Shown here piece by piece: positions 11,113 to 56,358 of a stretch of 64,000 nucleotides of DNA. The notes below the pieces were generated by a model. That model had not been told where the DNA came from and searched no databases. It saw nothing but the letters and a program-made list of their open reading frames with translations. Source of the stretch: Candidatus Nomurabacteria bacterium (GTDB lineage Bacteria > Patescibacteriota > Minisyncoccia > Phycocordibacterales > UBA9973). Both the position numbers and the translations under genes were made by a program. The stretch spans positions 14,875 to 78,874 of the forward strand of contig JAHFNT010000005.1 in NCBI GenBank assembly GCA_023267195.1. The letters run 5' to 3'. Every line of letters starts with the position of its first letter. Position 1 is the first letter of the stretch.

Positions 11113-11897
11113 ATATTTATTTCGCCCTCAAACACACATACAGCCGGACCAGTCAGCCAGATATTTTGATAAACACCTTTTCCAGCTTTTTCAAATTCCA
11201 CAGTCAAATCTCCACCCGGCATTTTTATATGACAAACATTTTCTTTTAAAATCCCAAGATGATGTGAAGCGATTGCCACAGAACAAGCTCCTGTTCCGCA
11301 GGCAAGTGTTTCATCTTCTACACCTCGTTCATAAGTGCGTACATAAAAAATGCCGTTTTTATTTTCTACATAATTCACATTTACCCCTTTGGGGTTTTGG
11401 CCATTGTCGCGAATTTTGCGCGCTTCAATGCAGATAGGGAAGCTTTCTATATTTACGACAAATTGAATATGGTGCGGGGTAGTACCTGAACACAAAAAAG
11501 GTAAGCCATTTTTTTCTCCAATTTCATTTACATTCTGCATTTTTAACTTTATTAAACCACTATCTAATATTTCTGCTTCATGCTCTCCATCTACCGCGAT
11601 GAATTTTACTTTTTTGGGATTTTTGATAATTTTTAAAACACTATTAGCAAAATGTACGATACACCTCCCACCGTTTCCGCACATGCTTCCCATGCTTCCA
11701 TCGTTGTTGATGAAGACCATTCTGAAATCAAAATTTCTCTCTTTTTCTAAAAGTATTACCCCGTCTGCCCCTATCCCAAAGCGTCGATGGCATAAATATT
11801 TGATATTTTCTTGATCGTTTACGGAAAATACTTTCTCTCGATTGTCTATCATTATGAAATCATTTCCGGCGCCATGGTATTTGTAAAATTTGAGCAT
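11109..11897 (-). CDS. dapF: diaminopimelate epimerase
   Basis: YHGAGNDFIMID N-terminus and the two catalytic Cys motifs CGNGGRC and CGTGACS. 4-nt overlap with the downstream gene. Confidence 0.9.
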   Translation of the reverse strand: MLKFYKYHGAGNDFIMIDNREKVFSVNDQENIKYLCHRRFGIGADGVILLEKERNFDFRMVFINNDGSMGSMCGNGGRCIVHFANSVLKIIKNPKKVKFIAVDGEHEAEILDSGLIKLKMQNVNEIGEKNGLPFLCSGTTPHHIQFVVNIESFPICIEARKIRDNGQNPKGVNVNYVENKNGIFYVRTYERGVEDETLACGTGACSVAIASHHLGILKENVCHIKMPGGDLTVEFEKAGKGVYQNIWLTGPAVCVFEGEINI

Positions 11898-14322: not shown

Positions 14323-15321
14323 ATGTTAAACCCAAAGCTAAAACTTAACACTAAACTATTTAATACGGACGTCGAGCAGGTGCCGATCCGTAAAGGTTTT
14401 GGGCAAGGATTACTTATGGCAGGCGAAGCGGATTCCAGTGTCGTCGGACTTTGTGCCGATTTGACTGAAAGCACACAGATGAATTTATTTGCCGATAAAT
14501 TTCCAGATCGGTTTATTCAAGTCGGAGTCGCGGAACAAAATCTGGTAACGGTGGCTTCCGGGATGGCAGCAATGGGAAAAATTCCATTTTGTTCTTCATA
14601 TGCGATGTTTTCACCGGGCAGAAACTGGGAACAAATTCGCACGACGATCACTTATAACGACCGGCCGGTAAAAATCGTCGGCTCACATTCAGGAATTTCT
14701 GTCGGGCCAGACGGAGGGACGCATCAGGCGCTTGAAGACATCGCGCTCATGCGTGTGATGCCGAACATTGATGTCATTTCTCCTTGTGATGCTATCGAAG
14801 CCAAAAAAGCGACGTTGGCGCTCGCCAAAACTGGCAAGCCAGCATATTTGCGTCTGGTTCGCGAGAAAACTCCGATTATTACAACCGAAGAAACTCCTTT
14901 TAATATAAACAAAGCAGAGATTTACTGGCTGCCGGATGTCGGGCTCGCGCAGGTCGGAATCATCGCGACTGGTGGTCTTCTTTACCGCGCACTATTGGCG
15001 GCCAAAGAATTAGAAGCCGAAGGAATAAAAACTAAAGTGCTGAATCTAGCTTCCATCAAGCCGATGGATGTAGAAGCTGTCGTGGCGTTAGCGAAAGAAA
15101 CGAAAGCAATTGTGACCGTGGAAGAACATCAGGTAGCTGGAGGTATGGGAGGGGCGGTGGCAGAAGTGCTCGCGCAAAATTTTCCTGTACCTATGGAATT
15201 TATCGGTGTGCAGGACAAATTTGGGCAAAGTGGTACACCAGACGAACTGGTGGAACATTATGGCATGGGAAAAAATTCTATCAAAGAAGCAGTGCAAAAA
15301 GTATTAGCTAGAAAAATTTAG
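14323..15321 (+). CDS. transketolase, C-terminal (pyrimidine-binding) subunit
   Basis: Transketolase pyrimidine-binding and C-terminal domains (GFGQGL..., EQNLVTVASGMA, SHSGISVGPDGGTHQ). Confidence 0.88.
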   Translation: MLNPKLKLNTKLFNTDVEQVPIRKGFGQGLLMAGEADSSVVGLCADLTESTQMNLFADKFPDRFIQVGVAEQNLVTVASGMAAMGKIPFCSSYAMFSPGRNWEQIRTTITYNDRPVKIVGSHSGISVGPDGGTHQALEDIALMRVMPNIDVISPCDAIEAKKATLALAKTGKPAYLRLVREKTPIITTEETPFNINKAEIYWLPDVGLAQVGIIATGGLLYRALLAAKELEAEGIKTKVLNLASIKPMDVEAVVALAKETKAIVTVEEHQVAGGMGGAVAEVLAQNFPVPMEFIGVQDKFGQSGTPDELVEHYGMGKNSIKEAVQKVLARKI

Positions 15322-21047: not shown

Positions 21048-22274
21048 ATGTATTCAAAAAAACTTATAGATTCTATTGAAAAGGAATTTGAAACGCTGAA
21101 AAGCGCTGGGAAATTTAAAGTGGAGAGGGAATTGGATGGAGCTCAGGGGGCAGAGGTGCGGATTGCGGGCAGACAAGTCCTGATGTTCGCCTCAAATAAT
21201 TATTTAGGTCTGGCTAATCATCCGGAAATTGTAAAAGCGGGGAAGGAGGCCATAGAGCAATACGGCTTCGGCTTGTCATCCGTCAGGTTTATTTCCGGCA
21301 CAGAAACGATTCACAAAATTTTAGAAAAAAAGTTAGCAGAATTTTTGGGCGTGGAGGATAGTATCTTGTATTCCACTAATTTCATGTCTAATCTAGGATT
21401 TTTTGCAACGATTACCAATGAAACTTTCGGCGACAGCGCTCCATACCTAGACGCGATTTATAGCGATGAGCTAAATCATGCTAGCATCATAGATGCTTTC
21501 AAGCTCTGCAAAAAAGAAAACGTTGTAAAAAGAATTTATTCTCATGGTGATGTTGCTTTACTGGAAAAAATGCTGGAAGAAGATAAAGAAAAAAATTATC
21601 GTTTTAAAATAATTGTAACAGATGGAGTTTTTTCTATGGAAGGATATCTGGCGCAACTGCCGGAACTAAAAAAGTTGGCAGAAAAATATGAGGCTATGCT
21701 TTTTGTGGATGATGCGCATGCCATCGGGGTGCTTGGGAAGACTGGCGCCGGAACGCCGGAACATTTTAATTTGCATGGGCAGGTGGATGTCCTTTCGGGG
21801 ACCTTCGGCAAAGCGCTAGGCGGAGCTGTGGGCGGATATATTGCCGGCAAGAAAAAAATAATAGAACTGCTTCGCCAAAAATCCCGCACGTATCTTTTTT
21901 CAAATTCTGTGCCTCCGTCTGTTGTCATCGCATCTATAAAGGCACTTGATTTATTAAAAGAAAAAAGAGAACTTTTGGACAAAGTAAGAGAAAATTCTGA
22001 ATACTTTAGAGCTGGAGCGCGAAAATTAGGTTTTAAAGTTTTAGAAGGCATTCATCCGATTGTGCCAGTAATGCTGGGTGATGCCGCTAAAACGCAAGAA
22101 ATTAGTCAGAAACTTTTAGCCAAAGGATTATTCGTTGTTGGATTATGGTTTCCGGTGGTGCCAGAAGGTGCTGCCCGCTTGCGTTTCCAAATTTCTGCCG
22201 CGCACACACATGAACAAATTGACCAAGCGCTCGAAATTTTATCAGAGGTAGGCAAAGAAATGAAAATAATTTAA
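21048..22274 (+). CDS. kbl: 2-amino-3-ketobutyrate CoA ligase (glycine C-acetyltransferase)
   Basis: PLP-dependent alpha-oxoamine synthase family (FASNNYLGLANHPE..., DDAHA, SGTFGKALGG PLP-Lys region). 408 aa. Confidence 0.85.
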   Translation: MYSKKLIDSIEKEFETLKSAGKFKVERELDGAQGAEVRIAGRQVLMFASNNYLGLANHPEIVKAGKEAIEQYGFGLSSVRFISGTETIHKILEKKLAEFLGVEDSILYSTNFMSNLGFFATITNETFGDSAPYLDAIYSDELNHASIIDAFKLCKKENVVKRIYSHGDVALLEKMLEEDKEKNYRFKIIVTDGVFSMEGYLAQLPELKKLAEKYEAMLFVDDAHAIGVLGKTGAGTPEHFNLHGQVDVLSGTFGKALGGAVGGYIAGKKKIIELLRQKSRTYLFSNSVPPSVVIASIKALDLLKEKRELLDKVRENSEYFRAGARKLGFKVLEGIHPIVPVMLGDAAKTQEISQKLLAKGLFVVGLWFPVVPEGAARLRFQISAAHTHEQIDQALEILSEVGKEMKII

Positions 22275-22281
22275 TTTTTTT

Positions 22282-22497
22282 ATGTTCAAAAACTTTTTAC
22301 TGAAAAAAATGCTTCGCACGCAAGGCGTGCCCGAAGCGCAAATAGAAATGTTCATAGTGATGATGGAGAAAAATCCAGAGCTTTTTAAAACTATAGCCGA
22401 AGAAGTGCAAACAAAAATGAAAGAGGGAATGAGCCAAATGGATGCGGGAATGCAGGTGATGAAAAAATACGAAGCGGATCTCAGAAAATTGGTGTAG
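22282..22497 (+). CDS. hypothetical Met-rich small helical protein
   Basis: 71 aa with 11 Met. Starts 8 nt after the kbl stop. No family recognised. There is a weak resemblance to Met-rich segments of the SRP54 M-domain. Confidence 0.35.
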   Translation: MFKNFLLKKMLRTQGVPEAQIEMFIVMMEKNPELFKTIAEEVQTKMKEGMSQMDAGMQVMKKYEADLRKLV

Positions 22498-22544
22498 ATT
22501 AAAAAGTGGAAAACTCCCACATTCGCAAGCTCGGTATTTTCAAC

Positions 22545-22573
22545 TTGACAATACCCCCTAGGGGGTATATACT
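22545..22573 (+). promoter_or_regulatory. sigma-70-like promoter carrying a CsoR-type operator
   Basis: TTGACA at 22545-22550. The 18-bp perfect palindrome ATACCCCCTAGGGGGTAT lies at 22551-22568. TATACT at 22568-22573, giving 17-bp spacing. It sits immediately upstream of csoR and closely resembles the B. subtilis copZA CsoR operator (TACCC...GGGTA). Confidence 0.7.
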
Positions 22574-22579
22574 TCCCCT

Positions 22580-22843
22580 ATGCACACAAATAAACAAAAA
22601 GTCATTCGCCGACTGAAGATTCTAGAAGGCCAAGTGCGGGGCTTGCAAAATATGGTTGAAAAAGATACTTACTGTATTGATGTCATAACGCAGACTTCTG
22701 CAGTGAAGCAGGGTCTTTCTAATGTTGAAGATATTTTGATGGATGGGCATTTGGGGCATTGTGTTATTAATCAAATCAAAAAAGGAGAAACAGCTAAAGC
22801 CAAAACGGAAATATTAAAAGTTTATAAATTAAAAAGAAAATAG
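22580..22843 (+). CDS. csoR: CsoR-family copper-sensing transcriptional repressor
   Basis: DUF156/CsoR fold: RLKILEGQVRGLQNMVEKDTYCIDVITQTSAVKQGL...HLGHCV with Cys and His ligands in the canonical positions. Confidence 0.85.
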   Translation: MHTNKQKVIRRLKILEGQVRGLQNMVEKDTYCIDVITQTSAVKQGLSNVEDILMDGHLGHCVINQIKKGETAKAKTEILKVYKLKRK

Positions 22844-22894
22844 ATCGACAAGGGCTTCGACTGGGCTCAGCCGAAAATCCTCACTATAAATAGT

Positions 22895-25219
22895 ATGAAC
22901 ACATTTAAAACATACAAGGTAAAAGGAATGCATTGCGCGTCTTGCGCCAGTATTATTGAAAGAACTATCAAGAAAATTGAGGGGGTAGCAAATATTGAGG
23001 TGAATCCGGGCACCGAAAATGCCAAGATTTCTTTTGATACAAACAAAACCAACGCGGAACAATTTAATCAAAAACTTGAACCACTTGGTTACTCGCTACA
23101 CAATATGAACATGTCAGCAAACGCTTCGGCTGTGCTCAGTGCAAGTGATATGAATATGAGTGAAGATGAACATAAAGAGCATTTGGGACTGAATCAAACT
23201 AAAAAAGAAAAGTTGGCAGAACTGAAGGACATGAAGAATAAACTTCTTTCTCTAATTCCTATTGTGCTCATTAGTATTTTTGTAATGAGTTACGATATTT
23301 TGGCGCAGTTTAAAGTTATTGCCGAGATGTCTTATTTCTGGAATGAATTTTTCCATCATCTTTTACCAGTTTTGGCCACTTACACGCTATTTGTAGTTGG
23401 TAAGCCATACTTACTCGGCTTATATCGTTTTTTTCGTCATGGACAAGCCAACATGGACACACTTATTGGTCTCGGTACGCTAGTGGCTTTTTTATATAGT
23501 TTTATTGTTAGCGCTTTTGAAGAAAGTTTAAAGGCTTTTATAAATGTCAATCAAAGTTATTACGATGTTACTATCATTGTGATTGCTTTCATTACACTTG
23601 GAAAATATCTGGAAGCGCGTTCAAAATTAAAAACAGGCGATGCGATTGAAAAACTTTTAAATCTACAGGCGAAAACTGCTTTAGTGGTTCGCGGTGAAAG
23701 GGAAGTTGAAATTCCGGTAGATCAAGTTATGCATGGTGATATTATTATCGTAAAACCCGGGGCAAAAATTCCAGTTGATGGCCTGATTGTTTCAGGATTT
23801 TCTTATGTTGATGAATCAATGGTGACCGGCGAACCAATGCCAGTAGAAAAAAAAGAGGGAGATGCTGTAGTATCTGGGACGATTAATACAACGGGATCTT
23901 TCACTTTTAGGGCGACGAAAGTTGGTGGAGAAACTCTGCTTGCCCATATTGTGAAAATGGTGGAAGAAGCACAAGGGAGTAAGGCACCGATACAGGCTTT
24001 GGCGGACAAAATTTCCAGTATCTTTGTGCCGGTTGTTTTGGGGATTGCAGTTTTGACTTTAGTGTTATGGCTTTTAGTTGGTATGCAATATTTTGGTTTC
24101 TCCCAAGCGCTTTCTTTTGGTTTGGTTTCTTTTGTGGGGATTTTGGTTATTGCATGTCCATGCGCTCTCGGTCTGGCGACACCGACGGCAATCATTGTTG
24201 GTGTAGGCAAAGGTGCGCGCGAAGGAATTTTAATCAAAGATGCGGCAACATTGCAAAAATTACACCAAGTCAATGTAGTTGTCGTGGATAAAACAGGTAC
24301 TTTGACTATGGGGAAACCCGAGCTTATTGCAGTTAAAAATTTTTCAAATAAAAATGATGATGAGCTGGTTTCTATTCTGGCCACTTTAGAAAATAAATCA
24401 GAACACCCTATTGCTCACGCCGTAATAAATTATGCAAAATCAAAAAAGCTAAAAATTAGCGAGCTGAATGATTTTGAAATTATAAAGGGCAAAGGACTTA
24501 AAGGAAGGGTTGACGGGGTAGAATATTTTGCTGGTAATACTAGACTAATTGAGGATCTAAATCTGCCGTTTGATAAAAATCTTTTGGAAAAAGAAACCTT
24601 GGAAGGCAAGACCCCGATAATTTTGGCGAATCAAAATGCAGTGCTCTGTGTGGTTTTGATAGCGGACGCGATAAAACCGGAAGCGATCGAGGCAGTAAAT
24701 AATTTACACAAACTCGGCGTCAAAATTGTGATGTTGACAGGAGACCATAAAAATACTGCTAAATATATTGCGAAGCTTGTCGGTATTGATGATATCGTGT
24801 CGGAAGCAATGCCGGAGAGTAAATTAGATAAAATCAAAGAATTGCAAGCGGAAGGCCAGGTCGTGGCGATGGCTGGAGATGGAGTAAATGACGCACCGGC
24901 GCTCGCGCAAGCGGATGTGGGTATTGCTATGGCTACTGGGACAGATGTGGCGATTGAAAGCGCTGGCATTACACTTCTACATGGCGATATTTCCAAACTA
25001 GTGAAAGCTATAAAACTTTCTAAAATGACAATGCGTGGAATCAAGCAGAATCTTTTCTGGGCTTTTGTTTATAATATTATTGGAATTCCGCTCGCATCTG
25101 GAATTTTCTTCCCATTCTTTGGTTGGTTGCTTTCGCCAGTCTTTGCTGGGTTTGCCATGGCGATGTCTTCAGTGTCTGTGGTAGGGAATTCGCTTCGCAT
25201 TAAGAGTAAAAAATTGTAA
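22895..25219 (+). CDS. copA: copper-translocating P1B-type ATPase
   Basis: N-terminal HMA domain (GMHCASCAS), TM CPC motif ([11 protein letters not shown]), DKTGTLT phosphorylation site, GDGVNDAP hinge. Confidence 0.92.
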
Positions 25220-25265: not shown

Positions 25266-25385
25266 ATGATGGGATATGGATATGGTGGAATGATGGGGGG
25301 CGGTTTTGGTTCTATTGTAGCCTTAATAGTGTTGGTTGATCTTGTTTTGTTCGGTATCTGGCTTTATAAAAATATTAATAAATAA
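25266..25385 (+). CDS. unannotated 39-aa Met/Gly-rich single-TM micropeptide
   Basis: ATG at 25266, stop at 25383-25385. Encodes MMGYGYGGMMGGGFGSIVALIVLVDLVLFGIWLYKNINK. Lies directly downstream of copA. Below the ORF-track size cutoff. Confidence 0.3.
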   Translation: MMGYGYGGMMGGGFGSIVALIVLVDLVLFGIWLYKNINK

Positions 25386-25388
25386 AAA

Positions 25389-25793
25389 ATGTATTTACGG
25401 AACAGAAAATTATTCATAGGTGTTTGCATTTTACTTGCTTATATAAGCATTGGAGTATTTGGCTTGCTTAAGCTTGACCATAAGATTGAAATGCCTATGG
25501 ATAATTGTCCGTATGCCCAAAATAGTTATGCAATATGTGAGAATAGTCTTGACCATATAAATAACTGGCAGCAATTTTTAAACGCAATTTCGCCATCTCT
25601 TTTCATATTTTCAATTTTAATTCTAGGAATAGTTTTATATTTAGTTACCAAACACAATTTTTTAAATCAAAAAAGTTATTTTTATAAATGGAAGTATTGC
25701 TTATATAATAAAAAATTATATCCTTACTCGAACATAATAATAAAATGGCTAGCATTTTTTGAAAACAGCCCTTCCTTTTTCTACAGGGCGTAG
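25389..25793 (+). CDS. hypothetical membrane protein (2 TM, CPYAQNSYAIC motif)
   Basis: ORF only. Very AT-rich. No family recognised. Confidence 0.3.
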   Translation: MYLRNRKLFIGVCILLAYISIGVFGLLKLDHKIEMPMDNCPYAQNSYAICENSLDHINNWQQFLNAISPSLFIFSILILGIVLYLVTKHNFLNQKSYFYKWKYCLYNKKLYPYSNIIIKWLAFFENSPSFFYRA

Positions 25794-25877
25794 CTAATTA
25801 TTTTGTCGTAAAATTTTTAGCTTTGCCTTCTGGTCCTCATATGAGGATTTTTTACTATTCTAATTATCTACAATATT

Positions 25878-29905: not shown

Positions 29906-31474
29906 ATGACTTTCATGCATAGGATCTTAAATTTCTTAAAAAATAAGAAGTATGTTTGTGGTGCTATTGCGCTAGCCCTGGTAATTGGCGGTATATTTGT
30001 GTTCAAAAATAATAAAGTAGCGAACGATACTCTCATAGTCCACTCAGCTGATTTCGTGAATCAGGTTTCGGTTTCTGGAAAAGTTGTAGCGTCGGATGAT
30101 GTTAGTCTTGGTTTTTCACAAGGTGGCAGAATAGCTTCCGTCCGTTTTAAGGTTGGTGATATTGTCACCGATGGAACACTTTTAGCTAGTGTGGAAAATG
30201 GAGATTTACGGGCTGATTTAACTCAAAAAGAAGCGGCTCTAGAAAAAGTACAGGCAGATTTAAAATCTTTGCAAATTGGGACTAGGCCGGAACAAATTGC
30301 TATTACAGAATCTGCGCTTGCAAGCGCAGAGACCGCTTTCGGTCAAGCGGGGCAGGGTGTTGTTAATTCTATCAACGATGCTTATACAAAATCAGACGAT
30401 GCGATTAAAAACAAAATAGACCAATTTTTTAGAAATCCATTATCTAATGATCCATATATCAGGTTGTCTGTGGATGACAACCTTCTGATATCTTCAGTCA
30501 ATCAAGAAAGAAAAGCTGTTGGTTTGACTCTTGCATCATGGGAAAAATCTGTTTTAGAAATGAATTCAGGGACGAATTTAGATAAATATATTTCTGAGGC
30601 AGAAAAAAATATGAATCAACTCAAAACATTTTTGGCGAAAGTTTCTTTGATTACCAATGATCCTGAAGTTACGTATGATGGGAATAATACTATTCCAAGT
30701 ACTTGGAAAACTGACACCTCAACAGCCCGATTGGCGGTTGATACGGCGGTTTCAAGTTTAGCTTCTGCTGTTACTTCATATAGAAGCGCCGAGTCTGATC
30801 TTATTACCAAGCAAAATAATTTAAAACTTGAACAAGCTGGATCGACACAAGAAGAGTTGGATGCAAAAACGGCAGAGATCAAGGGGGCAGAAGCAAGTGT
30901 TTTGAGCGCGAAAGCCAATTTACAGAAAACCTTAATTGTTGCTCCGTTCGATGGGATAATAACAAAAATAGATGCAAAGATTGGAGAAGTTGCATCTGCT
31001 AATGTTTCTGTTGTGGAGATGATGAGTGTAGGAACTTTCCAAATAGAAAGCTATGTGCCGGAAATTAATATCGCCTTAATTAAACTCGGCAATGATGCTG
31101 ATGTTACCCTAGATGCTTACGGCGAGAGTGTGTTGTTTAAAGCAAAAGTTGTTTCCATTGATCCAGCTGAAACAATTCGCGACGGAGTTTCTACTTACAA
31201 AATAAAACTTCAATTCAGTGAGAAGGATGAACGTATAAAATCTGGAATGACAGCTAATGTTTCTATTACGGTTTTCAACAAGCCTGGCGTGATAGCCATT
31301 CCTGGAGGAATTGTTTTTGAGAAAGAAGGAAAAAAATTTGTACAAGTAAAAGTTGATGAAGTGGTAGAAGACAAGGAAGTAATTCTCGGAAGTGTTTCTG
31401 CTCTAGGCAAAGTTGAGGTTGTTTCCGGCTTGGTGGATGGCGATATGGTTATTCTTAATCCGGAAATAAAATAA
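29906..31474 (+). CDS. HlyD/MacA-type periplasmic adaptor (membrane fusion protein)
   Basis: N-terminal TM, biotin-lipoyl-like hairpin (TLLASVENGDL), long coiled coils, C-terminal beta-barrel/MPD. Confidence 0.75.
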   Translation: MTFMHRILNFLKNKKYVCGAIALALVIGGIFVFKNNKVANDTLIVHSADFVNQVSVSGKVVASDDVSLGFSQGGRIASVRFKVGDIVTDGTLLASVENGDLRADLTQKEAALEKVQADLKSLQIGTRPEQIAITESALASAETAFGQAGQGVVNSINDAYTKSDDAIKNKIDQFFRNPLSNDPYIRLSVDDNLLISSVNQERKAVGLTLASWEKSVLEMNSGTNLDKYISEAEKNMNQLKTFLAKVSLITNDPEVTYDGNNTIPSTWKTDTSTARLAVDTAVSSLASAVTSYRSAESDLITKQNNLKLEQAGSTQEELDAKTAEIKGAEASVLSAKANLQKTLIVAPFDGIITKIDAKIGEVASANVSVVEMMSVGTFQIESYVPEINIALIKLGNDADVTLDAYGESVLFKAKVVSIDPAETIRDGVSTYKIKLQFSEKDERIKSGMTANVSITVFNKPGVIAIPGGIVFEKEGKKFVQVKVDEVVEDKEVILGSVSALGKVEVVSGLVDGDMVILNPEIK

Positions 31475-51670: not shown

Positions 51671-53497
51671 ATGGATCTCAAACACATCAGAAATTTTTCA
51701 ATCATCGCGCACATTGATCACGGCAAGAGCACCTTGGCAGATAGAATGCTTGAGATCACGCATACAATCGAAACTCGCAAAATGCGAGATCAGGTACTGG
51801 ATTCAATGGATTTGGAACGAGAGCGGGGGATTACCATCAAAATGCAACCTGTGCGAATGGAGTATGAATTTAAAGGGGAAAAATATATTTTAAACCTGAT
51901 CGATACCCCTGGGCACATAGATTTTTCCTATGAGGTTTCTCGCGCTTTAAAGGCCGTAGAAGGCTCTATTTTGCTCATAGATTCTACCCAGGGGGTACAA
52001 GCTCAGACTCTTACCACGCTTAATATGGCACGTCAGGGAGGCCTTAAAATCATCCCTGTGCTGTCTAAAATTGACTCCCTGTTGTCTAGGGTACCCGAAG
52101 TAAGAGAAGAGGTTATAAAGCTTTTAAATTGCGACCCGGAAGAAATCTTATTAGTCTCTGGTCGTACAGGTGAGGGAGTAGAAAATTTATTGCAAGAGGT
52201 TATAAAACGAGTACCAGAGCCCGTAGAAACAAATCATGGGGAAAATATATTGCGCGCGCTTGTTTTCGATTTTAAATATTCCAACCATAAAGGGGTGATA
52301 GTTTTTGTGCGGGTGCTTGATGGCAAAGTTCAAAAAGGGGATACCCTGCTTTTCGCTGTTTCGGAAGAAAAATTTATTGCGCTCGAAGTTGGTATTTTTT
52401 CACCCGAGGAAACCCCGCGCGATTCTCTTTCAGGTGGAGAGACAGGTTATATCGTTACCGGAATTAAAAAGCCTGGCATAGCTTCTGTTGGAGATACAAT
52501 TACCATGTTTAAAAACCCCTTACCAGCCTTTCCCGGTTATAGGCAACCGATGCCTGTTGTTTGGGCTTCAGTTTTTCCGGAAGATGCGGACGATTTTGCT
52601 GAATTAAAACTTGCCTTGGGTAAATTAAAACTTTCTGACTCAGCTTTCTCTTACGAAGAAGAGGCTTCAGGTTCCCTGGGGAAAGGATTCAGATGTGGAT
52701 TTTTGGGAATGCTTCATCTGGAAATTATCACCGAGCGTTTAAAACGCGAATTCAATCTGGAGTTGGTTATCACCACCCCTTCTATCACCTATGAAGTTTT
52801 ACTGAAAAATGGCCCCTCGGTTCCGCTCGGGACAGGCAAGCGCGAAAAAATTTATTCCCCATACTTTTTTCCCGACGACGGTCTTGTGGAAAAAGTTTTT
52901 GAGCCTTGGGTAAATTTAAAAATAATTACCCCAGTAGAATACATTGGTAGCATCATGCAGCTTTTGTTTGACCACGAAGGGGAAATAGGCGAAACGGATA
53001 ATTTTGGGGACAATAGGTCATCCATCTCAGTGCAGATTCCTTTGCGTGAACTGATGCGCAACTTTTTCGATGAATTAAAAAGTGCCACTTCGGGCTATGG
53101 TTCCATTTCCTATGAAATGGGCGAGATGCGCGAGGCAAATGTAACCAGGCTTGATTTATTGGTGGCGGATGAAGTGATACCGGCTTTCTCTAGGGTTGTA
53201 TCAAGAAAAAGAGCCGAAGAAGAAGCAGAAGAAGCAGTTGAAAAACTGGCAAATCTTTTGCCCAGGCAGATGTTTACTCTGAAAATTCAGGGTCGGGCGC
53301 TTGGGCGAATTATTTCTTCACGCACTCTCTCAGGGATGAAAAAAGATGTCACTCAACACATGTATGGGGGCGATATTACTCGCAAAATGAAACTTCGTGA
53401 GAAGCAAAAGAAAGGCAAGAAGAAAATGAAAGAAAGAGGGAAAGTAAATATTCCACAAGATGTGTTTTTAAAGATGATGCGCGCCGGTGAAAAATAG
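51671..53497 (+). CDS. lepA: elongation factor 4
   Basis: IRNFSIIAHIDHGKSTLADR G-domain. LepA-specific C-terminal domain. 608 aa. Confidence 0.92.
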   Translation: MDLKHIRNFSIIAHIDHGKSTLADRMLEITHTIETRKMRDQVLDSMDLERERGITIKMQPVRMEYEFKGEKYILNLIDTPGHIDFSYEVSRALKAVEGSILLIDSTQGVQAQTLTTLNMARQGGLKIIPVLSKIDSLLSRVPEVREEVIKLLNCDPEEILLVSGRTGEGVENLLQEVIKRVPEPVETNHGENILRALVFDFKYSNHKGVIVFVRVLDGKVQKGDTLLFAVSEEKFIALEVGIFSPEETPRDSLSGGETGYIVTGIKKPGIASVGDTITMFKNPLPAFPGYRQPMPVVWASVFPEDADDFAELKLALGKLKLSDSAFSYEEEASGSLGKGFRCGFLGMLHLEIITERLKREFNLELVITTPSITYEVLLKNGPSVPLGTGKREKIYSPYFFPDDGLVEKVFEPWVNLKIITPVEYIGSIMQLLFDHEGEIGETDNFGDNRSSISVQIPLRELMRNFFDELKSATSGYGSISYEMGEMREANVTRLDLLVADEVIPAFSRVVSRKRAEEEAEEAVEKLANLLPRQMFTLKIQGRALGRIISSRTLSGMKKDVTQHMYGGDITRKMKLREKQKKGKKKMKERGKVNIPQDVFLKMMRAGEK

Positions 53498-55068: not shown

Positions 55069-56358
55069 ATGCAAAAAAGCTTGATTCAGAATTTTGATGA
55101 GTTGGCTGTGACTTCGAATCGCAAGATGGCTCTAGAAATAATGGAGTCTGGGTTAAAAGCTATCAATACCAAAGAAGTTATTTTTAATTCTGTTAAGTTG
55201 ACGGGGAATGTTTTAAATATTGAGGGGCAAAGTTTTGATTTGTCTAAATTTAAAAAGATCAAGATTGTTGGTTTTGGAAAATCTTCCCCAGAAGCCGCGC
55301 TGGCCCTAGAGAATATTTTAGGTGGAAAGATTGACGCTGGGGTAGTAATTGGACTTTCCAAAATAAATTTAAAATATATTGAAACCTTTGTTGGTAGCCA
55401 CCCTCGGCCCAGTGAAGTTAATTTCGAAGCTGGGGAGAAAATATATAAAATCGCCGAGAATGCCACCGAGGATGATTTGGTCATTGTAATTGTTTCCGGA
55501 GGAGGTTCGGCGCTCTTGTGCCATGGTAAAGAGGAGTGCGAAAGCGGAATCAAACTTTATGATTCTTTTTTAAAATCCGGAAAAACAATTGCCGAAATAA
55601 ATACTGTCAGAAAACACCTGTCGTTTTTGAAAGGCGGAGGCTTGGCTAAAATCGCTTACCCGGCCACGATTGTAGCGCTTATTTTTTCAGACATACCCGG
55701 AGATAATTTTGAAAATGTTGCTTCCGGACCGACCTATAAAGATATGACTACGGTGGATGATGCAAATAAAATTATTAGAGAAAATAACCTAGGAGAATTC
55801 AACTTAATTGAAACTCCAAAGGAGGATAAATATTTTGAAAAAGTTCACAATTTTGTTTTAGTTTCCAATCAGACCGCGGTAGAAGCGATGGCGCAAAAAG
55901 CGCAAGAATTTAATTTAGAGACAGACATTATTTCCACCCGATTGTTCGATGAAGCAAGCAGTGTTTTAAAGAAAATATTTTCTTCCAAGCTTTATTTCCA
56001 CAAAGAAAATTCTGTTGTCTTGGCTGCCGGTGAGCCTAGTATTGTGATTTCTCCAAATAGAGGCAAGGGTGGGAGGAATATGCATATGGGGTTATTGGCC
56101 ATAAAGAATAAAACCATTGATGAAAATACTGTTTTTATTTCTTTTGCCTCTGATGGCATGGACAACAGCGATGCGGCTGGAGTTGTCGTGGATAAAATTA
56201 ACATAAAAAATGCAGAAAAACTAAGATTGGATGTAGATGACTATCTGGAGCGTTTTGATTCCTATTCTTTTTTTTCTAAAGCAGGTGGTATAATCAAGAC
56301 TGGCCCTACGGGTGCCAATGTTTCTGATTTAATGATTTTGTTAAAGAAAAAATTATGA
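55069..56358 (+). CDS. glycerate 2-kinase (MOFRL family)
   Basis: DUF4147 N-terminal and MOFRL C-terminal domains (VIVSGGGSALL, GEPSIVISPNRGKGGRN). Confidence 0.75.
   Translation: MQKSLIQNFDELAVTSNRKMALEIMESGLKAINTKEVIFNSVKLTGNVLNIEGQSFDLSKFKKIKIVGFGKSSPEAALALENILGGKIDAGVVIGLSKINLKYIETFVGSHPRPSEVNFEAGEKIYKIAENATEDDLVIVIVSGGGSALLCHGKEECESGIKLYDSFLKSGKTIAEINTVRKHLSFLKGGGLAKIAYPATIVALIFSDIPGDNFENVASGPTYKDMTTVDDANKIIRENNLGEFNLIETPKEDKYFEKVHNFVLVSNQTAVEAMAQKAQEFNLETDIISTRLFDEASSVLKKIFSSKLYFHKENSVVLAAGEPSIVISPNRGKGGRNMHMGLLAIKNKTIDENTVFISFASDGMDNSDAAGVVVDKINIKNAEKLRLDVDDYLERFDSYSFFSKAGGIIKTGPTGANVSDLMILLKKKL

Follow-up and report, generated by a model that had tools for sequence, protein, structure and literature searches.

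The 64-kb stretch of DNA analysed here (64,000 nt, hereafter the window) comprises positions 14,875 to 78,874 of contig JAHFNT010000005.1, from the assembly GCA_023267195.1 of a Candidatus Nomurabacteria bacterium, and all coordinates given below are counted from its first nucleotide. From position 22545 onwards it carries a promoter, a perfect palindrome lodged inside that promoter, and two co-directional genes, csoR and copA, predicted to encode a copper-sensing repressor and a Cu(I)-exporting ATPase. Judging from sequence comparisons, it is very probable that the palindrome is the operator of the copper-sensing CsoR, within a sigma-70-type promoter driving a csoR-copA operon. The features involved, with the evidence for each, are the following:

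22545..22550, + strand: -35 hexamer TTGACA of the csoR-copA promoter (sequence; 11/12 promoter match, 17-bp spacer).
22551..22568, unstranded: predicted type-2 CsoR operator, the perfect 18-bp palindrome ATACCCCCTAGGGGGTAT (unique in the window; conserved in relatives).
22568..22573, + strand: -10 hexamer TATACT, joined to the operator's right arm (sequence and promoter scan).
22580..22580, + strand: predicted start of a leaderless mRNA, on the A of the csoR ATG (-10 spacing and absence of a Shine-Dalgarno, SD, site).
22580..22843, + strand: csoR, encoding a predicted 87-aa Cu(I)-sensing repressor of the CsoR/RcnR family (Pfam, PDB and NCBIfam matches; residues).
22844..22894, + strand: csoR-copA spacer of 51 nt (terminator scan, fold and gap comparison).
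22895..25219, + strand: copA, encoding a predicted Cu(I)-exporting P1B-1 ATPase with an N-terminal HMA domain (Pfam, TIGR01511 and motifs).
25832..25855, + strand: terminator-like hairpin GGTCCTCATATGAGGATT followed by TTTTT, that is, TCCTCATATGAGGA plus a T-tract (terminator scan and sequence).

Read directly from the sequence, the full layout is CAAC-TTGACA-ATACCCCCTAGGGGGTA-TATACT-TCCCCT-ATG, the ATG at 22580 being the first of the 87-codon open reading frame (ORF) of csoR. The 17-bp promoter spacer is wholly filled by the palindrome, and the first T of TATACT is common to the -10 and to the palindrome end. The palindrome (the CsoR box in what follows) is built from the dyads TAC, at 22552-22554, and GTA, at 22565-22567, which enclose C4-TA-G4 and are flanked by A/T; it can also be read as C5-TA-G5. 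In a neutral promoter scan of the region between 21.5 and 30.5 kb this promoter was the top-ranked site, with 11/12 hexamer matches, and the sole one above 10/12, sigma-70-like sites being as a class at chance level there (28 found vs 27.8 expected).

The product of csoR matches the Pfam family PF02583 (DUF156), an all-helical domain, along residues 4-80 (6.4e-24; 84.6 bits vs a cut-off of 22.8) and, among the solved structures, the CsoRs of Geobacillus (4M1P, 3.8e-16), Streptomyces lividans (4ADZ, 4.9e-16) and Mycobacterium tuberculosis (2HH7, 2.8e-10; query residues 4-82 vs chain residues 8-86), 3AAI being also among the full-length matches to solved CsoRs. The alignment to 2HH7, with 79 residues on each side, is read as ungapped with an offset of +4, and it places C32, H57 and C61, separated by spacings of 25 and 4, on C36, H61 and C65, the residues that bind Cu(I) in the M. 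tuberculosis protein, the founding member, reproducing the ligand fingerprint x-C-H-C. In the same way, Y31 and E77 correspond to the second-shell residues Y35 and E81, which in M. tuberculosis CsoR couple Cu(I) binding to DNA release. Q38, six residues after the Cys, is the counterpart of the DNA-contact glutamine Q81 of S. lividans, in helix alpha2. A single-sequence AlphaFold2 model of the protein was all-helical and of low confidence (predicted local distance difference test, pLDDT, 68; predicted template modelling score, pTM, 0.41), its comparison with the PDB by Foldseek returned noise only (E-values >3), and it was discarded as evidence; therefore, the fold assignment rests on homology to the solved CsoRs. 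An identical 87-aa protein, with an identical promoter, is present on three metagenome contigs.

As regards the second gene, the copA product contains the Pfam domains E1-E2_ATPase, Hydrolase and HMA, and scores 605.7 bits against TIGR01511 (copper-translocating ATPase; cut-off 397). Its P1B-1 signature is complete, with the N-terminal MxCxxC (MHCASC at 12), CPC in transmembrane helix 4 (at 421), the phosphorylation site DKTGT (at 465), YN(x)4P in transmembrane helix 5 (YNIIGIP at 726) and M(x)2SS in transmembrane helix 6 (MAMSS at 755).

These data bear on the nature of the signal. The family includes sensors of nickel or cobalt (RcnR, InrS, NreA), of persulfide (CstR) and of formaldehyde (FrmR), so both the protein and the box could be real and serve one of these signals. 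The InrS structure 5FMN, with its C-H-C ligands, is matched at 2.1e-10, and the window protein has a His at position 2, an N-terminal His being used by RcnR. However, H2 is not kept in the relatives, whose N-termini read MQTNK, MKTNK, MNINK or MKYMDDKNK, while x-C-H-C together with Y31 and E77 is the copper-type pattern, and CstR is devoid of the His. The top solved and NCBIfam matches are copper sensors, RicR (3.7e-21) ranking far above RcnR (1.5e-6) and FrmR (3.7e-5). Moreover, the regulated gene is a Cu-type P1B-1 ATPase (CPC, YN(x)4P, MxxSS), and it is the next gene after csoR in 76/80 of the related loci presented below. In Escherichia coli, RcnR senses Ni/Co through H-C-H-H ligands and recognises the type-1 operator TACT-G6-N-AGTA, which has one unbroken G tract and occurs as tandem sites with one tetramer per site (PMC3902906); this is not the operator type seen in the window. 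Taking these points together, a signal other than copper is unlikely.

The window box was compared with CHARACTERISED operators, whose sequences were taken from Tan et al. (PMC3902906). In type-2 CsoR sites, two G/C tracts lie 2-4 bases apart with AT-rich inverted repeats outside, as in the streptomycete consensus ATATACCCCTNAGGGGTATAT and in the S. lividans sites of csoR (AATACCCCTGGTGGGTATAT), copZA1 (GTACCCCCTAGGGGTATA) and copZA2 (TATACCCCCTAGGGGTAA) (PMC3902906). The window box, with its two short G/C tracts 2 bases apart and its AT flanks, agrees with this definition (PMC3902906), and it overlaps the csoR-copA promoter, as is also expected of a type-2 operator. There is a match to the S. 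lividans operators TACCCCCTAGGGGTA as well as to the streptomycete consensus, and the core of the window box, TACCCCCTAGGGGGTA, equals the copZA1 and copZA2 cores plus one G (X10 vs X9). By sequence, the nearest verified operators to it are those of S. lividans, in which two CsoR tetramers occupy each site, any base swap in TAC/GTA abolishes binding, and the Cu(I)-loaded protein does not bind the operator (PMC3902906). The likeness extends to the TAC/GTA dyads, the two C/G tracts, the central TA, the conserved C, H, C and Gln residues of the protein, and the presence of type-2 sites (csoR-4375, copZA1 and copZA2) upstream of both csoR and a copA-type pump. Nevertheless, csoR and copZA are separate units in S. 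lividans, whereas a single operator serves a csoR-copA operon here; in addition, the window has no gene for the CopZ chaperone, and the 87-aa protein lacks the long N-terminal tail and carries RLKI in helix alpha1.

Conservation was evaluated in relatives collected with a scan of one genome per species, in which 420 stretches were found to encode relatives; the analysis covered the 80 best of these, which are 74-86% identical. Almost all of these are metagenome-assembled genomes (MAGs) of Patescibacteria, or candidate phyla radiation (CPR) bacteria, belonging to Nomurabacteria, Paceibacteria and other Parcubacteria-group lineages. The CsoR box lies immediately upstream of csoR in 80/80 independent loci, with the TAC/GTA dyads intact in 78 of them (L012 and L017 carry CAC as the left dyad), and the strict pattern appears nowhere else in the ~480 kb of flanking DNA of the relatives. 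The core is of 16 nt (TAC-X10-GTA) in 62/79 relatives and of 15 nt (X9) in 16/79, and columns that were not forced by the search pattern, such as the A/T flank and the 4th and 5th C/G, are nearly invariant, while the central two bases vary. In 77/80, the first base of a -10 (TATACT, TATAAT or TATATT) lies 0 or 2 nt into the GGGTA arm, and a -35 with at least 5/6 matches is found 16-18 bp from the -10 in 49/79 (in the set formed by the 79 relatives plus the window). Since the upstream neighbours vary by locus, with a tRNA at some of them, the box is linked to csoR, not to whatever gene lies upstream.

The initial annotation of this region, made from the letters alone, had described TTGACA, an 18-bp perfect palindrome and an overlapping TATACT at a 17-bp spacing, which is exact in the sequence; it had also placed this element directly upstream of csoR-copA, and the next gene after csoR does encode a copper-type P1B ATPase. 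That the first ORF is of the CsoR type, a point on which the absence of a CsoR-like fold would have weighed heavily, is clear by sequence homology, from the PF02583 match, the solved CsoR structures and the Cu(I) ligand pattern. The proposed identity of the operator is borne out by validated type-2 sites (PMC3902906) and by its constant place in the related loci, and the proposed Cu(I)-derepressible autoregulation is supported by protein family, ligands, gene order and operator match. The sequence features, the protein family with its ligand pattern, the uniqueness of the box, its conservation and the synteny are direct observations.

Among the 80 loci there are 13 MAG records with non-CPR labels (Gammaproteobacteria, Flavobacteriaceae, Bdellovibrionales, Oligoflexales or Kapaibacterium), namely L025, L026, L028, L030, L037, L038, L045, L052, L058, L062, L067, L079 and L081, whose csoR-copA are 74-80% identical to those of CPR and show the same promoter layout. 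Wrong labels or wrong binning of these records would explain this, as would horizontal transfer of the module.

The conservation of the box also bears on two other explanations of the palindrome. Transcribed into RNA, it could form a hairpin with a 7-bp stem and a 4-nt loop (-10.3 kcal/mol), and it lies 54 nt past the stop of a 71-aa ORF, so it might be an intrinsic terminator of the upstream genes at 21048-22497 and not a protein-binding site. However, its tail ATACTTCC is not T-rich and the site was not listed by the terminator scan, the -35 and -10 flank it, and it is the sequence itself that is conserved, not pairing alone. Furthermore, its distance from the csoR ATG is fixed in the 80 relatives, whereas the upstream genes vary, relatives of up71 and kbl408 being present only on contigs of the same organism, apart from kbl408 in L018. 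A terminator at this position is thus highly improbable. Just as improbable is that the spacer palindrome is the site of a MerR/CueR-type activator remodelling the promoter in response to copper. It is true that MerR-family operators are also dyads between -35 and -10, but MerR-type promoters need an over-long spacer of 19-20 bp, and that of the window measures 17 bp (16-18 bp in the relatives). Taking into account that the hexamers are near-consensus and the spacer is normal, the promoter should be active without an activator; besides, no MerR-family gene is adjacent, and the box matches CsoR sites base for base.

The significance of the site as a CsoR operator derives from its sequence, position and conservation, not from palindrome length, which was rejected as evidence because perfect palindromes of at least 18 bp arise in 86/200 Markov-1 simulations of the window (43%) and one of 20 bp exists at 30311. 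The motif ATACCC-N6-GGGTAT has a single copy in the 64 kb, so there is no recurrence at many unrelated sites such as would speak against the initial annotation. Allowing up to 3 mismatches, 20 hits were obtained, the other 19 all having 3 mismatches, and this total is at chance level (15.3 +/- 4.0 expected). A weight matrix of 22 columns derived from the relatives gives the window box 36.3 of a maximum of 39.6 bits, and no second site in the window reaches 8 bits with it. Taking the mismatch search, the matrix and variable-core regular expressions together, no operator copies were found in the 64 kb beyond 22551-22568, and none, in particular, upstream of 25878 or 28389, where the initial annotation had suggested looking for them. 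Its description of the palindrome as one of very few GC-rich elements was overstated, the window having 38.6% GC and, among runs of at least five identical bases, 10 of C and 43 of G. What is singular is the combination, the CsoR box being the sole instance in the window of a C-tract plus a G-tract between TAC/GTA dyads. That it is a chance feature of an AT-rich genome next to promoter-like sequence, as the frequent palindromes and the 28 promoter-like sites might suggest, is the least credible explanation and is already refuted by conservation, given that from base composition an exact consensus match is expected ~0.003 times per window and that the box recurs before csoR in every related locus.

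Two other sequences were considered as possible CsoR sites and rejected. The element TTACCCCTTTGGGGTTTT, at 11381-11398, has the appearance of half a CsoR box (TAC-X9-GTT). Having GTT where the right dyad should be GTA, and a T tail besides, it is regarded as a terminator-like hairpin, unlikely to bind CsoR; TACCCAGGGGGTA, at 51985, is asymmetric and lies within an ORF.

Other palindromes of the window are the perfect, GC-rich one of 20 bp mentioned above (TCTGCGCTTGCAAGCGCAGA, 30311-30330, within the ORF 29906-31474), TTCCAAGTACTTGGAA (30693-30708) and AAGAAAATATTTTCTT (55969-55984), and their lengths are consistent with chance.

The csoR and copA genes appear to form a single transcription unit. 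In 74 relatives, a median of 2.5 nt separates the stop codon of csoR from the start of copA; 57 of them have 6 nt or less there, and 33 show a 1-nt gap, TAA-T-ATG. Such gaps leave no space for a promoter or an SD, which suggests that csoR and copA are co-transcribed and coupled through termination-reinitiation. In six loci an insert of ~570-640 nt, presumably an extra gene, separates the two. No terminator, SD or operator was detected in the 51-nt spacer of the window, only a weak fold (-9.1 kcal/mol).

On these grounds, the following model can be proposed. Without copper, CsoR tetramers would sit on the TAC...GTA dyads and the C/G tracts, two tetramers per site by analogy with other CsoRs. 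As the box takes up the whole spacer of a near-consensus promoter, of optimal 17-bp spacing, and reaches the -10, its occupation would block RNA polymerase. Cu(I), bound to C32, H57 and C61, would make CsoR leave the DNA, and derepression would then yield both the repressor and the Cu(I) export pump CopA; since csoR is the first gene of the unit, the circuit would be one of negative autoregulation. The mRNA would be leaderless, its first base being the A of the csoR ATG, and copA would be translated from it as well, without a Shine-Dalgarno site.

Several points weigh against this proposal or restrict it. The spacing between dyads is TAC-X10-GTA, and X9 is the spacing quoted for characterised sites; it is treated as variation, not as exclusion, because G-tracts of variable length have been reported (PMC3902906). 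The RLxR motif of helix alpha1 (R54 and R57 in S. lividans) reads R11-L12-K13-I14 here, so that Arg is missing from the fourth position; the motif's best conserved positions are the first and second (PMC3902906). C-H-C ligands are found in nickel sensors of the InrS type too, so the assignment to copper depends in part on the genes nearby. The 51-nt spacer between csoR and copA is an outlier, L006, L052 and L061 being similarly long, and the mechanism of coupling may therefore be different in the window; just before the copA ATG, CACTATAAAT is a possible internal start signal, without an accompanying -35. Finally, for this organism we infer binding, copper response, stoichiometry, transcription start and translational coupling, and the two-tetramer stoichiometry is itself known only for S. 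lividans, Bacillus subtilis and M. tuberculosis (PMC3902906).

The transcription start deserves separate consideration. The -10 ends 6 nt before the csoR ATG, and the intervening TCCCCT contains no SD. This puts the A of the ATG at the usual position of a transcription start, and a leaderless csoR mRNA is therefore probable. The same geometry is seen in the set of 79 relatives plus the window, where the first in-frame ATG follows the -10 at 6, 7, 8 or 9 nt in 26, 18, 24 and 5 cases, respectively (73/80 in total), and a clear leader, of 28 nt, exists only in L058. It is not restricted to csoR. A -10-like hexamer ends 5-9 nt upstream of 20 of 55 crude gene starts of the window (36%; for example, 1163, 4893, 13144, 16337, 37278, 54046 and 60555), vs 3.0% of 1,936 other ATGs (p = 1.4e-15); when the TG extension is also required (extended -10, TGnTAnnnT), the figures are 11/55 (20%) vs 0.3% (p = 2.8e-14), and an SD-like 4-mer precedes just 2 of the 55. 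The 294 genes flanking csoR in the relatives show the same -10 peak at 6-7 nt, some of them with an SD peak too.

A Pribnow box 6-8 nt from gene starts is the signature of 'group C' of GeneMarkS-2, reported mainly for Actinobacteria and Deinococcus-Thermus, CPR being unmentioned in the main text of that work (PMC6028130). The csoR start, with its Pribnow box at 6 nt and no SD, bears this signature, the gene starts of the window fit it, and leaderless starts seem to be a genome-wide habit in the source organism. More tentatively, and with rather less than even probability, a lineage-wide style might be proposed for Patescibacteria of the Nomurabacteria/Paceibacteria type, in which at least one third of the units would be leaderless, with promoters 6-8 nt before the ATG (many of them extended -10), SD sites nearly absent and downstream genes starting 1-6 nt past the preceding stop, as in TAA-T-ATG; the csoR-copA module would then be one instance of this style. 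If this were true, these CPR bacteria would join Actinobacteria and Deinococcus as 'group C' leaderless organisms, and the trait may be linked to the reduction of their ribosomes and of their complement of ribosome biogenesis factors. An incomplete search of the literature on leaderless expression in CPR gave incidental mentions only, and genome annotation pipelines may already model such expression; no rRNA gene lies within the 64 kb. This possible lineage-wide leaderless, SD-poor expression is a more interesting lead than the operator itself.

The elements of the csoR-copA switch have precedents elsewhere. According to Smaldone and Helmann (2007), B. subtilis CsoR reportedly sits on a GC-rich pseudopalindrome overlapping the copZA promoter and is released by Cu(I); this is the system to which the initial annotation had likened the window box. 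The csoR of this species is not known to head the pump operon, whereas that of the window does. The B. subtilis site has been counted among the type-2 sites with TAC/GTA dyads (PMC3902906). Bradyrhizobium liaoningense has a CsoR box (TATACCCCTACCGGGTATA) that overlaps the -10, and rapid amplification of cDNA 5' ends (5'-RACE) puts the csoR start at the A of the ATG, that is, leaderless (PMC5057107); csoR and cueA are, however, divergent there, with a bidirectional promoter and a 42-nt leader plus ribosome-binding site for cueA, whereas the window genes are co-directional and would share one transcript. In Mesorhizobium, NreA, a nickel-responsive member of the CsoR/RcnR family, has a dyad operator in the -35/-10 spacer, its nreAXY transcript is leaderless by 5'-RACE and, as in the window, the repressor gene heads the operon that it controls (PMC12724321); the differences lie in the metal, the family clade, the 19-bp element, which is of a different sequence, and the efflux genes.

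Comparable in promoter structure are two Firmicutes plasmids in which csoR is followed by copA and whose CsoRs are 41-44% identical to that of the window. In the Staphylococcus capitis plasmid NZ_CP098819.1 (TTGACT-TATACCTACCAGGGG-TATAAT) and in the Bacillus paranthracis plasmid NZ_CP116206.1 (...ATACCCCCTACCCGTATAAT) the box is fused to the -10, as in the window; both differ from it in having a 40-50-nt leader and a strong SD (GAGGAGG or GAGGTG). In S. capitis (L085 1400-1480) the boxes are in tandem, ATACCTACCAGGGGTAT being located in the promoter spacer and ATACCCCATCAGGGTAT ~20 nt downstream in the leader, just before the strong SD.

Thus, as both the leaderless csoR and the spacer operator have experimental precedent (PMC5057107, PMC12724321), no new mechanism is put forward; the operator type, its spacer position, autoregulation and leaderless transcripts are already documented in other phyla, and little is added to CsoR biology itself. 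The interest lies in a confident sequence-level annotation of a predicted copper switch in an uncultured, small-genome CPR bacterium, considering that few regulators in CPR bacteria have assigned targets. The module that goes from the -35 to the ATG has only 38 bp and is highly conserved. It could be used as a marker of the csoR gene start in the annotation of Patescibacteria, as a compact copper-inducible promoter part or, having one promoter, one operator and one start codon, as a handy test case for leaderless initiation in CPR metatranscriptomes.

Downstream of copA, no terminator is predicted before the hairpin at 25832-25855, which is the probable end of the unit transcribed from the csoR promoter; the transcript may therefore also cover the ORFs 25266-25385 and 25389-25793. 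The first of these (+ strand, 39 codons, MMGYGYGGMMGGGFGSIVALIVLVDLVLFGIWLYKNINK) is unannotated, with a Gly/Met-rich N-terminus and one hydrophobic helix, and its product, without a match in Pfam or NCBIfam, may be a small peptide of the membrane expressed from the same transcript as copA. The second (+ strand) would encode a 134-aa membrane protein with Cys, His and Met residues, also without a family match in Pfam or NCBIfam, a relative of it being present only in L018.

Beyond the hairpin, between 25878 and 29837 (+ strand), there is a tightly packed cluster encoding a DUF1573 protein, a 259-aa membrane protein, two unknowns, an HMA-DsbD_2 fusion and a cupredoxin-like protein, which looks metal- or redox-related. 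The motif, matrix and regular-expression scans found no CsoR box in it, and the predicted CsoR regulon within the window is the csoR-copA unit alone. On the other side of the operon, just past the stop of the 71-aa ORF (22282-22497), the hairpin GTGGAAAACTCCCAC occupies 22506-22520; it scored as terminator-like on the minus strand only, where no gene ends, and through it the csoR promoter may be weakly shielded from transcription coming from upstream.

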